A stretch of DNA of 64,000 bases from a virus, in IMG/VR virus record IMGVR_UViG_3300006754_000011, positions 10,206 to 74,205 of that record; one strand, 5' to 3'. This document shows, in pieces, positions 42,350 to 64,000 of the stretch. Made by a program: the position numbers and the translations under genes. Numbering within the stretch: position 1 is the stretch's first letter; every line of letters begins with the position of its first letter. The notes beneath the pieces are model-generated. The model was not told the DNA's origin. It was given only the letters and a program-made list of their open reading frames with translations, and did no database searches.

Positions 42350-42444
42350 TGTTAGATGCGGTAAATGTGTGACAGGTCCTCAATGCAGGAGTTGCACCCA
42401 CACAAGACAAGCTTGGTGCTGACTTGAGGTAGTTAAGAGCCTAC

Positions 42445-59394: not shown

Positions 59395-60943
59395 TTAATA
59401 TATCTCTAAGATTTTATTAGGACTTTATATTCGTGTTTTAATTTACCTTCTTTATAAACATGAGCTTTAGTTATGTATCTATCACTCATTATGCGAGCAA
59501 AGTGTTGGCATACATGTCCATTCTTAAAGTAAAAATGAGTTGTCATGTTATCAAACTTACATGACCATTTGCCTTCATCCTCTTTACAACGTTTCTTAAT
59601 AGTGAGAGCAATTTTCTTATCTAATTCTTTATTGACTTCTCTAGAGTTATAGAATGTTAATGGATAATAATTAGCCATTAGGTAACCTCCTCTTGTAGGG
59701 TTGTGCAATCAATTCGTTCATCATCCTGATAACAAATAATTTTCTTATACTTATCTTCTCTTTGCTCCATATAATTACGAGCAAGTAAAGGATTGATAGA
59801 TACTTTGGCATAATATTCAAAATCAATATCATAGCCACTATCATTATGGTTTAAAAAGAGAGAAATATAACAACCTTCAACAGGAACTTGTACAGAATGC
59901 TTAACTTGCGTTAAATACTTAGTTGCATGTTCTTTAATCATATTGTGAGTACAAATTGTACCTGGATTAACAATTTTTAAGAAACCTATTGTAGCGTCAA
60001 GTTCATAGTCATCCCAATGAATTGTTGGTTGATGTGCTGTTGTAATTGGAAGCATGAATTAATTTCCTATATATAAGGTAAATAACGCGAGCGTTAAAAT
60101 TATAGACGATGATTCCATGAATGCTCTTAATGTTAACTTTGCTGTAGTCATCAGAATAAAATGCAGTCAGAGAAGACTGCAGAGAATCTAATCGATTCAG
60201 TGCAATCATCAAGTATCTTTAACATATTGGAATGATTAAGACAACATAAAAAAACCAGAGAAGTTTTACCTCCTCTGGCCTTATTGTTATAGAGAACTAG
60301 CTAATCTCCAGAGTCTGAAGCTTAACTTTAGTATCCTCTATAAATTTGGAAACTTTAGGTGCAACATATGCATAAAGTTTCTTGCCGTCCTCCATTAAGT
60401 TATTCCATTCTTTGGTATGTTCATCAGTTCTTAACCTGAAATCACTTTCATAGCTAAGACGAGACTTACCAAACAAAGGAATCATCTGTGGAGTACCTTC
60501 TTTGAGAGAAGAGATGTGCTCTTCTAAGCTGGTAATCTTGGCTTCTAAAGTTGCCTTCTCTTGATCAGTCATTACTTTCTGTTCTTCCATCAATAGATTT
60601 AAACGCTCATTCGTAGAATAAGCCATAGATAACTCAGCAGCTTGCGAAGCTAGTGCTTGTTCTCTTTCTATTATGGTAGAGGAGATTGTTTTGAATGATT
60701 TATAAAAAGACTCTTTAGAACCTCTCTTGTACTCAGCAAGTAAATTTAACTGAGCAGGAGTCATGTTACTAACATCATCTTCGATAACTTCAGCAACCTC
60801 TGAGTTAATTTCTAACTGTTCGGTAGCTGTAGGAACTTCAGTAGTGACATTAGTTTCCATAGCCACGATTGGCATAGAAGAAGCTTGTCTTCTAGCTCTC
60901 TTAGAGGTGTTACGTCTAGACATAAATCTAGTGCAAGGGACAA

Positions 60944-60970
60944 GAGCCTTTTAAAGACGTACTCAGGTCA
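60944..60970 (-). repeat. Leader pseudoknot copy 3
   Basis: GAC-CUGAGUAC-GUC-UUUAAAAG-GCUC. Confidence 0.7.
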
Positions 60971-61022
60971 AAAGTTGAGGGAGGAATTGCACCTCCCCAA
61001 GGTCACTAGACTCAACTCACTA

Positions 61023-61394
61023 CTAAGAAGTAGCTACAACTTCCTTGTTGCTTTCAGCTTCAACACGTTGTGCTCGGCTGGCTTCACCAAGTCTTACGGT
61101 TATAGGACTGTCAGTTAAGACAACCTCCATACGACTGCGACGCTCACCATTCTCTGTTTCCCAAGTCTTATAAAGAAGCCTATAAGTTACAGAGATAGTG
61201 TCGCCTTGGTTGTAGCGACTAAGGATGTTGTTACCAATACCGTTGTACGCGGTAAGAGGTATGGCAGAATCTTCATCAGAACTGCCAACAGGCTTCACTC
61301 GAAACTCTGTTACTGTAAAGGAACCTTTAGGATTCCTCTGAGCAATACGAGAGACGATAGTGCCTGTGATACCACCGAAGTTGGTAGGATTCAT
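61023..61394 (-). CDS. ssb: Single-stranded DNA-binding protein (start at 61394, after GGAG)
   Basis: GDTISVTYRLLYKTWETENGERRSRMEV; OB-fold pattern. Confidence 0.7.
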   Translation of the reverse strand: MNPTNFGGITGTIVSRIAQRNPKGSFTVTEFRVKPVGSSDEDSAIPLTAYNGIGNNILSRYNQGDTISVTYRLLYKTWETENGERRSRMEVVLTDSPITVRLGEASRAQRVEAESNKEVVATS

Positions 61395-61420
61395 GGATAA
61401 ACTCCATAAGGTGTACAAAG

Positions 61421-61447
61421 GAATAGTTTTGTGACTTATTCAGGTCA
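61421..61447 (-). repeat. Leader pseudoknot copy 4
   Basis: UGAC-CUGAAUAA-GUCA-CAAAAC-UAUUC. Confidence 0.7.
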
Positions 61448-62054
61448 ATGCCATGCCAGGGGATTTGATCCCCCAGCTCATGCTTATGACATGGCAGCTT
61501 TAGTGCATGAATGTTTTTCATAGCAATCTCTCATCTGTTCAAGAAATTCTTTAACAGATGTATCTGGAACAACAGTAGAAACATCTTCTGTCTTCCAGTA
61601 AGGATTACCTTCAGAATCAATCATCTGAACTTGATATTCAAGAGCGTGTAATTGCCTACCTGGTAGATAAGCAACACGATCAAATTCTGGGCTTAAAGGA
61701 TAAGTCCAAGGTTGAATACGTGGCATTGTAATAATGCAAAGGACAAGGGAATGAATCCCTCAGTCTGCCTAAGAAAAGGCAGAGGGAGAGAGTCAGTTAG
61801 TTGAGTAACCTTTCTCTTGGCAGAACCTCATGTGCCTATCATGTTGTTCTGGAGACCAGTCTTGAGTGAGACATTGCATTCTCGAAAAGTAATTGAAGGA
61901 AGTAATTGTCACTAAAGGATAAGTAATTCCAACAGTTAATATGAAAGTACAAGTCGCAAGAAAGGCTTTTGTGTGGTAGTCCATAGTGTTAATACGAATG
62001 ATTAAGAAAAAATAAAGACCAGAAGATATAACTCCTGGTCTAAATCTTGTCTGC

Positions 62055-62288
62055 TTAGTTGTTAACTAGACCTCTAAGACTTAAATCAATGCTCTCGCAT
62101 TTCTTGTAGCCTTTGTTGTCTATTAAACTCTTTACAGACTTCCGAATCACTGCGATTGGAGCACTCAACATGGTGTAACGACTGCAACCATTAGCAGGAT
62201 CAACATGCAATAGTTCAGCCATATCACCATGTACATTCACGAGATAAGCATCATGAATGTTCTTTTGATATTGAAAAGAAGCCCACAT
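62055..62288 (-). CDS. Hypothetical early protein (start MWASFQ at 62288)
   Basis: ATG 8 nt downstream of the shared leader motif. Confidence 0.5.
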   Translation of the reverse strand: MWASFQYQKNIHDAYLVNVHGDMAELLHVDPANGCSRYTMLSAPIAVIRKSVKSLIDNKGYKKCESIDLSLRGLVNN

Positions 62289-62718
62289 GGTGGTAAGTGC
62301 GAAGGACACAGGGAAGAACCCTGTAGGAAATCCACCTCCCAAGAAGGGAGGAAGGACTAAGTACAGAGATCACTTGGTCTCTACAAATTCAACGAAATCA
62401 CTTACATCAACTTCGACTTTGCTGACAGGAGAAGGTACAACCTCAAGTTTCTTGGGTTCTACTTTCTTGGCAGCGCGAGGCTTTCTAGTAGCTTTCGCTT
62501 TAGTTGTAGATTTAGTTACCTCTATTGCATCAGGTCTTATCCACTCAGCAAGTTGAACTCTTGCTTCGTCGGTCTTAGCTCTTATTGCGGTACGTAGCTT
62601 AGATTTCTCATCGGTGGTAGCACCAAGGAAACTCAAGACTCCAGTACCAGCAACAAGTCCAGTGCCGAGGAGTAAGACAGCTTGATTACCTTTCATGGTA
62701 GAAAGTGCAAAGGATAAC

Positions 62719-62745
62719 GAATAGTTTTAAGACATATTCAGGTCA
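62719..62745 (-). repeat. Leader pseudoknot copy 5
   Basis: GAC-CUGAAUAU-GUC-UUAAAAC-UAUUC. Confidence 0.7.
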
Positions 62746-63129
62746 AAACCGAGGGTGAGGAATTGAACCTCTCCAACACATATAAAATGTGTTCCATCAT
62801 CTCGGCTCGATTTATCGTCTCGATAGACGACACCTGTTGGTGCTAAGAGAGGATGTGGACTGTATAGACTGACCTGCTGCAGACAGGCCAGCCACGAGGA
62901 ACCATCTCGCAACATTTACGACTACTTGGTTAGGTAGAAGGCAGAGAACGACTCTGCATATTTAGCCACCAGGCGTTACCTGGCTCTGGTGAGGACCACT
63001 CACACATTTCCGACCTGCTGGTTAGACAGGAAGGCTACGTTTAACGTCCAGCTTGACGCGAATGATAGATATAAAGAAAGCTATGTTTAACGTCAGGGAC
63101 AGCTCGACGGACGAATAAATGAAGCATTT

Positions 63130-63156
63130 AGCAGTTTAAAGACATGCTTAGGTCTT
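63130..63156 (-). repeat. Leader pseudoknot copy 6
   Basis: AAGAC-CUAAGCAU-GUCUU-UAAAC-UGCU. Confidence 0.7.
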
Positions 63157-63165
63157 GAGCTATTG

Positions 63166-63333
63166 CTAGCTCAGTGAAGCTTGGAACTCTGCTAATTCAT
63201 CGTGTGGGAAATCTGAACAGACTTCACCACCCGAATCCTTAGCAAAGGACTCAGCTTCCACTAGAGAATTAAATTCCCTAGTGTCAGGACACATACGTCC
63301 ACCGCGGTCGACGTAGAAATCCACATAAAACAT
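63166..63333 (-). CDS. Small acidic protein (55 aa, MFYVDFYVDRGG...), absent from the ORF track
   Basis: GGAGG SD 6 nt upstream of the ATG; clean ORF. Confidence 0.65.
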   Translation of the reverse strand: MFYVDFYVDRGGRMCPDTREFNSLVEAESFAKDSGGEVCSDFPHDELAEFQASLS

Positions 63334-63379
63334 GGATAACCTCCATGAGTGCGGTGCTCATCTCCGCTGGGAGCTGACG

Positions 63380-63406
63380 AAATAGTTTAAAGACATACTT
63401 AGGTCT
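63380..63406 (-). repeat. Leader pseudoknot copy 7
   Basis: AGAC-CUAAGUAU-GUCU-UUAAAC-UAUUU. Confidence 0.7.
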
Positions 63407-63461
63407 ATAAATACCGAGGGAGCGGAATCGAACCTCTCCTACACCATCTCAGTGAAAACAC

Positions 63462-63486
63462 ACAGTTTAAAGACATGTTTAGGTCT
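63462..63486 (-). repeat. Leader pseudoknot copy 8
   Basis: AGAC-CUAAACAU-GUCU-UUAAAC-UGU. Confidence 0.65.
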
Positions 63487-63704
63487 AAATACTATGCGGG
63501 TTAATAACCCTAGATATACTTATATAAGTTAAAGAAGTGTCTTCTAGACTGAGTAATTCAGTTTTCCACAAGCTCTGCCGGAGTACAAGACCTTGTAAGG
63601 CGACTCATCTTCTGACGGCCCCGTCCCATATAAGGAGCGGGAACGGTTAAAAAGGAGGGAAAATAGGGGAAAACGGGTATAAATACCTTGTTTATGCCTA
63701 TTTC

Positions 63705-63735
63705 ACACTAAAAAAGGGGGATCAAAGCCCCCTCT
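63705..63735 (-). terminator. Terminator-like direct repeat, copy A
   Basis: AGAGGGGG-CTTTGAT-CCCCC-T-run-AGTGT. Confidence 0.7.
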
Positions 63736-63736
63736 C

Positions 63737-63901
63737 TTAGGTTTGTTGCTCTACATCGAAGGATTTTATATCTGCTGGAACTAGATACTCATCCATGTCT
63801 GCAAGGTGCAGCCATTTCCAGGCAGCCTCTTCTGATTCAAAGAAAGGACCGAAGGGAAGCCTATCGTCAGATGTAAGTGCAACTGGTGTAAACGTAGTCA
63901 T
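63737..63901 (-). CDS. Small protein (54 aa, MTTFTPVALT...), absent from the ORF track
   Basis: Clean ORF between two repeated terminator-like hairpins. Confidence 0.6.
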   Translation of the reverse strand: MTTFTPVALTSDDRLPFGPFFESEEAAWKWLHLADMDEYLVPADIKSFDVEQQT

Positions 63902-63918
63902 AATTAAAATAAATAATT

Positions 63919-63950
63919 ACACTAAAAAAGGGGGACCGAAGCCCCCCTCT
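63919..63950 (-). terminator. Terminator-like direct repeat, copy B
   Basis: AGAGGGGGG-CTTCGGT-CCCCC-T-run-AGTGT. Confidence 0.7.
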
Positions 63951-64000
63951 TTAATGACCTTCATTAACTATCGAACCCGAAGGACATAGTTATGTAAAGA

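Follow-up and report, generated by a model that had tools for sequence, protein, structure and literature searches.

The window analysed here is a 64,000-nucleotide stretch of viral DNA, bases 10206–74205 of a 74.2-kb contig in IMG/VR (record IMGVR_UViG_3300006754_000011; completeness estimate 87%). Because it encodes psbA, a family A DNA polymerase, a primase-helicase and tail fibres and also contains a glutamine-II riboswitch identified in an Rfam scan, its gene and RNA content assigns the source to an uncultured cyanophage. A comparison of the DNA polymerase gave Roseobacter CRP phages and the Synechococcus phage S-EIVl as the nearest cultured relatives, with identities of just 43–46%. The last 3.3 kb of the window read on the minus strand as a row of small open reading frames (ORFs) of 54–208 aa, including a gene for an SSB-like protein, and look like an early gene cluster. 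This region contains four short elements, here termed mimics, that resemble the acceptor stem and T arm of a transfer RNA (tRNA) and are closely followed by a small RNA pseudoknot. A DNA search of a phage database gave no match for the mimic region. The mimics are conserved and covary in related phages and may serve as signals for tRNA-processing enzymes of the host.

The four minihelices lie on the minus strand at 63453–63413, 62806–62748, 61496–61449 and 61017–60973 (E1–E4). Minimum free energy folds give the acceptor stem and T arm for all four, with a 7-nt loop closed by a G–C pair, in agreement with the first-pass annotation, which had drawn the same stems and loops from the letters alone. 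E1 (63413–63453) has a 6-bp acceptor stem (ACUGAG/CUCGGU), an 8-nt linker containing GG and a 7-bp T stem with one mismatch, closed by a G–C pair around the T-loop UUCGAUU; it is flanked by a pseudoknot on either side. E2 (62747–62807 at its widest) combines a 6–7-bp acceptor stem (GCCGAG/CUCGGU), a 7-bp hairpin in the linker and a 7-bp T stem that has an A·A mismatch and the loop UUCAAUU. In E3 (61449–61496), a 7-bp acceptor stem (UGCCAUG/CAUGGCA) is joined to a 5–7-bp T stem with the loop AUCAAAU, and the linker contains the stop codon of the 80-aa ORF upstream. E4 (60973–61017) stacks a 7-bp acceptor stem (AGUUGAG/CUCAACU) on a 5-bp T stem, 12 bp in all, with the loop UGCAAUU; its first base is the last base of the triple stop UAG-UAG-UGA of the SSB-like gene. 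All of the mimics are on the coding strand, with three of the four linked to ORF ends and one overlapping a stop codon. The U-rich trailers that follow them (0–4 U each) are short, with gaps to the pseudoknot of 6–7 nt for E1, 2–3 nt for E2, 1–2 nt for E3 and 3 nt for E4, so that each element does end just 5′ of a knot (1–7 nt), as had been proposed.

The downstream motif is 26 nt long and occurs six times in the window, always on the minus strand and always within 60944–63486. It is built from a 3–4-bp stem (GAC/GUC), an 8-nt loop, a UAAAC-type linker and a 4–6-nt tail that pairs with the loop. PK6 (63460–63486) ends 6 nt before E1 and has a plain hairpin 11 nt upstream, while PK5 (63380–63406), with the stem P1 AGAC/GUCU, a UUAAAC linker and the tail–loop pairing, follows 6 nt after E1. 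PK4 (63130–63155) is preceded by no mimic and comes directly after a plain GCAA-loop hairpin that holds the stop codon of the 55-aa ORF. PK3 (62718–62744), 2–3 nt after E2, leads the 108-aa ORF; PK2 (61421–61447), 1–2 nt after E3, leads the SSB-like gene; and PK1 (60944–60969), 3 nt after E4 and with a loop–tail pairing read off the sequence, leads the 208-aa ORF. Loop and tail covary both within the window (AGCA/UGCU, ACA/UGU and AAUA/UAUU) and in over 150 copies of the motif on unrelated viral contigs (GAGCA/UGCUC, GAGUA/UACUC, GAUGA/UCAUC and GAACA/UGUUC), so that the motif is an RNA pseudoknot and not a promoter, as it had been designated earlier. An alternative assignment, with TAAACT as the −10 element of a promoter and the mimics as terminators, was rejected in view of this covariation and of a spacing of just 12 nt between TTGACC and TAAACT; promoter geometry alone would still allow transcription to start near the knot.

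The pseudoknot is found in at least hundreds of unrelated viral contigs (loci L010–L229), including prophage-sized records from isolate genomes, and usually lies just 3′ of a stop codon or hairpin and either 20–40 nt 5′ of a start codon or directly 5′ of a tRNA. It has no match in Rfam, and a literature search with the knot sequence returned unrelated primer matches only. Two tandem knot variants (CGUC/GACG stem, UUAAAC linker) are located at 63034–63058 and about 63080–63109 (minus strand), where most of the sequence is non-coding, and are followed by a block of ∼220 nt (63030–62810) that is richer in GC and has no convincing ORF. Knot variants with UGUC/GACA or CGUC/GACG stems are also present between minus-strand genes of the cultured phage S-EIVl (L128; 42988–43013, 33576–33603, 30488–30514 and 29145–29170, minus strand), in which ARAGORN detects no tRNA genes.

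The mimics themselves are not tRNA genes. A D arm, an anticodon arm and CCA are absent from all four, as the first-pass annotation had stated and as reading of the sequence, ARAGORN and Rfam all indicate. ARAGORN calls no tRNA in the window, as expected, and none in the related loci L008 and L133; nor does it find a transfer-messenger RNA (tmRNA) in the window. Rfam, searched over 59500–64000, gave no match at the gathering threshold or at E ≤ 10, the tRNA and C4 antisense RNA (RF01695) models included. The cloverleaf described by RF00005 and ARAGORN, with its D arm and 7-nt anticodon loop, is lacking, with linkers of down to 7–8 nt, and no copy of the mimic has the G3·U70 pair or the CCA end of tmRNA. 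The T arm is that of a tRNA, with G53–C61 closure and a U54-U55-C56-R57-A58 loop on a 6–7-bp acceptor stem that directly adjoins the T stem. GGTTCRANYCC, the sequence by which tRNA-like t-elements are recognized within messenger RNA (mRNA), occurs exactly in E1 (GGTTCGATTCC) and E2 (GGTTCAATTCC), and E3, E4 and a possible fifth mimic, E5, each deviate from it at one position.

Matches to the T-loop word GGNNCRANNCC number 12 in the window, compared with 3.4 expected, and a scanner for an acceptor stem with a T arm returned seven matches, compared with about one in shuffled sequence (maximum four). Five of these seven are on the minus strand in intergenic gaps and correspond to E1–E4 and to E5 at 42429–42378. 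A covariance model was begun from one architectural class and iterated twice; its first version was too sequence-specific and missed E1 and E2. When built without the window copies of E1 and E2, the model recovers E2 at 22.9 bits (E = 0.0017) and E1 at 15.5 bits (E = 0.26). The final model gives 41.7 bits for E1, 41.4 for E2, 54.9 for E3 and 59.9 for E4, with the next best match in the 64 kb at 13 bits; these scores are partly circular because all four window copies are in the model seed.

Relatives gathered through alignment of the SSB-like protein comprise three viral and 19 metagenomic loci, and mimics are present at syntenic sites in about 15 related marine contigs (L007, L008 and L130–L142). 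Every locus that has at least 76% identity in the SSB-like protein and includes the relevant flanks carries mimics at the same positions, with many compensatory changes. Examples read from unfitted sequence include the E3 acceptor stem, which changes from UGCCAUG/CAUGGCA to UACCAAG/CUUGGUA in L134, the E1 acceptor stem, which changes from ACUGAG/CUCGGU to GCUGAG/CUCAGC in L140, and T stems that change from GGAGAGG/CCUCACC to GGAAGGG/CCCUUCC; E1 orthologues with compensatory changes were found in L131, L133, L138 and L140. Over 27 distinct copies, 95.3% of the pair cells hold standard pairs and changes on both sides occur in 10 of the 12 pairs, although these counts favour structure because the alignment was fitted to the model and mixes paralogous sites. 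Slid controls, in which the 3′ partners were moved by 1–3 columns, gave ∼50% pairing and 0–4 double changes. Since the mimics are conserved and covary in homologous phages, the concern raised at the outset, that the structures might not extend to relatives, falls away.

Among the 27 copies the T-loop never departs from G53, C56, A58, U60 and C61; it has only purines at position 57, and it allows U or A at position 54 and U or G at position 55. This pattern, judged from the aligned letters, is the T-loop signature of tRNA. The linker that separates the 5′ acceptor strand from the T arm ranges in length from 7 to 33 nt, and hairpins in it are gained or lost; in L133 and L008, for example, the linker hairpin of E2 is replaced or deleted while the acceptor stem and T arm are kept. 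Selection therefore acts only on the acceptor/T core. The complete 86-kb relative G001 has four model matches, all on one strand and inside 1.7 kb, and both in the window and in G001 the mimics are restricted to the coding strand of the early-gene cluster.

In other phages, the pseudoknot stands beside genuine tRNAs. A scan of IMG/VR with a pattern requiring a T-loop and then the knot within 10–22 nt returned 62 matches, of which 40 are tRNAs called by ARAGORN and two are mimics of G001; the remainder are mostly tRNAs with inserts or tRNA-like structures. Taking all loci with a knot together, the knot starts 0–5 nt after the tRNA end in 34 of 40 pairs, a range partly constrained by the search pattern; on the other side, for which the pattern did not select, 39 of 41 pairs have the next tRNA starting 0–5 nt past the knot. 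In one locus (L020) the knot constitutes the entire spacer between tRNA-Ile and tRNA-Thr. Of the 40 knot-adjacent tRNAs, only four encode CCA. Because the knot elsewhere abuts mostly CCA-less tRNAs, the mimics take the position, the register and the CCA-less state of real tRNAs, and E1, situated between two knots, is placed like the knot-flanked examples. Given that many phages arrange real tRNA genes beside the knot in the same way, the mimics probably mark cut sites for the tRNA-trimming machinery of the host in the early message. The scan also brought up tRNA-like genes not called by ARAGORN and followed by a knot (L237, L275, L238, L255, L254, L261 and L285), several of which look like tRNAs, of the tRNA-Ile(UAU) type or another, that carry large inserts within the anticodon region or close to it.

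For RNase P and RNase Z to recognize a substrate, an acceptor stem with a T arm is enough. We regard it as an even question whether host tRNA-processing enzymes, mainly RNase Z, take the mimics as signals and split the early polycistronic RNA. From the observed structure, conservation, covariation, T-loop identity, position and positional equivalence with real tRNAs we infer an enzyme, a cleavage and a form of protection that might combine as follows. Host RNase Z, acting on CCA-less substrates, would recognize the minihelix and cut 3′ of the discriminator position, in the short U-rich spacer. The cistron upstream would thereby retain a compact tRNA-like 3′ cap, and the downstream cistron would start with a pseudoknot, similar to the coremin motif of plant RNA viruses, on a 5′-monophosphate end, where the knot could block 5′-to-3′ decay by RNase J or by 5′-end-dependent RNase E. 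RNase P might cut on the 5′ side as well, in which case the upstream message would be inactivated and not matured, conceivably as a decay step. RNase Z, RNase P and RNase E are all present in cyanobacteria, together with an essential RNase J that acts as a 5′–3′ exonuclease on non-triphosphorylated 5′ ends (PMC10989914).

A number of observations weigh against processing by tRNA enzymes. Stop codons start 1–9 nt before the 5′ acceptor strand or 2–10 nt inside the element (E3-type copies and L133:1648). In E4-type copies the first stop starts 8 nt 5′ of the element in nearly all cases (2 nt in L135:3905), in E1-type copies it starts 1–4 nt 5′ of the element or overlaps it, and in E3-type copies, which follow three different upstream genes, a UAA lies in the linker 9–10 nt past the 5′ end of the element. 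A constructive RNase P cut is therefore doubtful, because cleavage on the 5′ side would leave mRNAs with no stop codon or nearly none. Of the original proposal that host tRNA enzymes cut the early transcript into units, the general idea thus gains from the real tRNAs that share the place of the mimics beside the knot, whereas the part assigned to RNase P is weakened. The coaxial stack of acceptor and T stems is 12–14 bp long and not invariably the canonical 12. Plain hairpins instead of mimics precede two of the six knots (PK4 and PK6), and in some relatives a plain hairpin, not a knot, lies 3′ of the mimic; because hairpins substitute on either side, part of the function must be that of a simple structured boundary. 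The three-part control cassette envisaged in the first-pass annotation accordingly keeps its mimics and knots as real structures and loses their obligatory pairing. The covariance model found no mimics in the distant relatives L009 and L143–L148 (52–59% identity in the SSB-like protein) or in S-EIVl, and L009 has a terminator-like hairpin 3′ of the SSB-like gene in place of the mimic. The sequencing runs listed as holding the sequence are three DNA-type runs from one study, with no RNA runs. Finally, the AU-rich spacer would suit RNase E without any recognition of a tRNA, which is a live alternative.

This last point leads to the strongest competing explanation, in which the mimics are 3′-end caps or protein-binding handles that are not cleaved by tRNA enzymes and RNase E cuts the AU-rich spacer. 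The upstream cistron would then be shielded from 3′ exonucleases, or the mimic would be bound by a protein that reads the T-loop, for instance the CCA-adding enzyme, TruB/TrmA, EF-Tu or a phage factor. The hairpins that hold the same place before PK4 and PK6, the ordinary hairpin at that place in L009, the short, single-stranded and AU-rich spacers and the stop codons that abut or enter the mimic, as they would a 3′-terminal structure, all fit such a role. A mere clamp, however, does not call for 27 variants that all keep G53, C56, A58, U60 and C61 in a 7-nt loop, nor for a register shared with the real tRNAs beside the knot, and we consider this explanation unlikely. Less probable still is that the mimics are decoy or anti-defence RNAs, set free as short tRNA-like molecules with no anticodon and titrating a host or competitor factor aimed at the acceptor/T region of tRNA, for instance an acceptor-stem toxin or a tRNA-sensing defence. 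An early-expressed, multi-copy RNA with a true T-loop and no decoding capacity would be well suited to this, and E1 is flanked by knots like an excisable tRNA. Yet each copy has its own acceptor sequence, with free covariation, so that no single tRNA identity is mimicked; three of the four mimics are linked to ORF ends, with one overlapping a stop codon; and there is no evident partner gene.

There is a slightly smaller chance, and a low one, that the mimic-plus-knot units are primarily DNA-level recombination sites for shuffling early gene cassettes, with RNA structure secondary. Two loci, L132 (50–408) and L135 (3066–3479), contain two E3-type mimics, each with its knot, around an extra gene of 60–74 aa that is absent from the window, and the three different upstream genes that run into the same E3 sequence all use its UAA. 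The compensatory changes, on the other hand, keep pairing over identity, whereas sites of DNA homology need no pairing; a role as module boundary is, moreover, compatible with processing by tRNA enzymes. The arrangements in L132 and L135 suggest that early gene cassettes have recombination boundaries at these units as well. That the mimics are decaying tRNA genes or intrinsic terminators, for which one could cite the tRNA-like T arms and the four U after E2 and E4, is very improbable, since compensatory change preserves the structure across relatives with no erosion, neither ARAGORN nor Rfam detects a tRNA, E1 and E3 have no U tract, and a terminator scan (a GC-rich hairpin followed by at least five U) calls two sites within the cluster, at 62041–62016 and 60282–60251, and none of the four mimics.

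Plant mitochondrial t-elements, reportedly described by Hanic-Joyce in 1990, are the closest published counterpart of the mimics. They are non-canonical tRNA-like folds, found with the GGTTCRANYCC probe in mRNAs at gene ends and in some cases extending into the reading frame; they are associated with mapped mRNA ends in vivo and are taken to direct cuts by RNase Z and/or RNase P, and the plant ccmC and nad6 genes have gene-internal transcript ends (Forner et al., 2007; PMC1920247). The likeness consists in the GGTTCRANYCC T-arm motif and in a tRNA-like structure at gene ends in mRNA. Whereas t-elements are organellar, few per genome and have experimentally mapped ends, the phage mimics form a cluster in an early operon, have an acceptor stem and T arm only, are followed by a knot and are known from sequence alone.

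In mitochondrial tRNA punctuation, and at the 3′ ends of MALAT1 and MEN-β, which give rise to mascRNA, RNase P and RNase Z cut tRNAs or tRNA-like structures in long transcripts and thereby set the ends of their neighbours. Mitochondrial tRNAs and mascRNA are complete cloverleaves, mascRNA receives CCA and a triple helix protects the upstream RNA. The putative protective structure in the phage is instead a pseudoknot, which lies downstream of the mimic. The tRNA-like domain of tmRNA also combines an acceptor stem and a T arm without an anticodon arm; it differs in being built from the two ends of one RNA and in having a CCA end, G3·U70 alanine identity and SmpB binding. The C4 antisense RNA of phages P1 and P7 (RF01695) is a phage RNA freed from its precursor by RNase P. 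The comparison with this family suggested by the first-pass annotation was unproductive, the mimics having a different architecture and no match at E ≤ 10 in 59500–64000. Haloarchaea and mammalian long non-coding RNAs also have tRNA-like processing signals, and Escherichia coli RNase P cuts some operon mRNAs.

The knot, and not the mimic, resembles the coremin motif, an Xrn1-resistant exonuclease-resistant RNA (xrRNA-C) of plant RNA viruses with the sequence GUCCGAAGACGUUAAACUAC (PMC10520033). Shared features are a GUC/GAC-type stem, a Y-G-A-type loop start, the UUAAAC spacer and a second pairing, and the window knot variant at 63058–63034 has GACGUUAAAC in common with coremin. In contrast to coremin, the phage motif is an H-type knot in which the 3′ tail pairs, with clear covariation, with the loop of the hairpin, and by analogy its target would be a bacterial exonuclease, RNase J, and not Xrn1. 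A limited literature search found nothing on acceptor/T-arm minihelices that punctuate phage operons or are paired with a coremin-like knot.

The case for E5 as a mimic is weaker than that for E1–E4. It lies between ssb and the next gene (42378–42429, minus strand) and has a 6-bp acceptor stem, a 6-bp T stem and the loop UGCAACU, with no pseudoknot downstream. E5 is 93% conserved in the 86-kb relative G001 (L287, about 1500–1590) although the upstream flank diverges; it is not detected by the final covariance model in the scan of the 64-kb window.

A search of the contig for a T7-type RNA polymerase gave no match, but the controls were equally unmatched. A σ70 consensus scan, which has little power for cyanobacterial promoters with a −10 element only, found a single minus-strand match in the mimic-bearing stretch, at 63089–63062 within the region of the pseudoknot variants, and its total of eight matches is no excess over the 10.0 found in shuffled sequence. 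Upstream of the mimics, two near-identical intrinsic terminators (G5–6 stem and U6) flank the 54-aa ORF at the contig end (63705–63956, minus strand). A conserved box like UCCUUUGCAC lies 7–16 nt 5′ of several early start codons that lack a Shine–Dalgarno sequence (62717–62700, 60943–60930 and 61746–61733, minus strand). Two early genes, the 55-aa ORF and the SSB-like gene, have their GGAG and AUG inside a repeated hairpin, CAUGGAG-N-UUAUCCAUG (63347–63331 and 61410–61392, minus strand), which may occlude the start site.

Beyond this virus, a two-part RNA punctuation in phages of many hosts, with a tRNA, or its stripped-down mimic in the present cyanophage lineage, recruiting RNase Z/P to cut polycistronic RNA and a coremin-like knot guarding the 5′ end so created against RNase J or RNase E, is a tentative extension that we think more doubtful than the processing of the early message itself. 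If true, such a system would bring together in prokaryotes the equivalents of mitochondrial tRNA punctuation and of viral xrRNAs. We know of no described exonuclease-resistant RNA that acts against bacterial RNase J, and the mimic with its coremin-like knot represents a concrete candidate for one. As compact parts, the mimics are also possible insulators for synthetic operons in cyanobacteria. Should the mimics be cut by host tRNA enzymes, then early operons of these phages would be processed by the logic of mitochondrial genomes, and minimal signals of 41–61 nt could allow transcript boundaries to be predicted from sequence alone.

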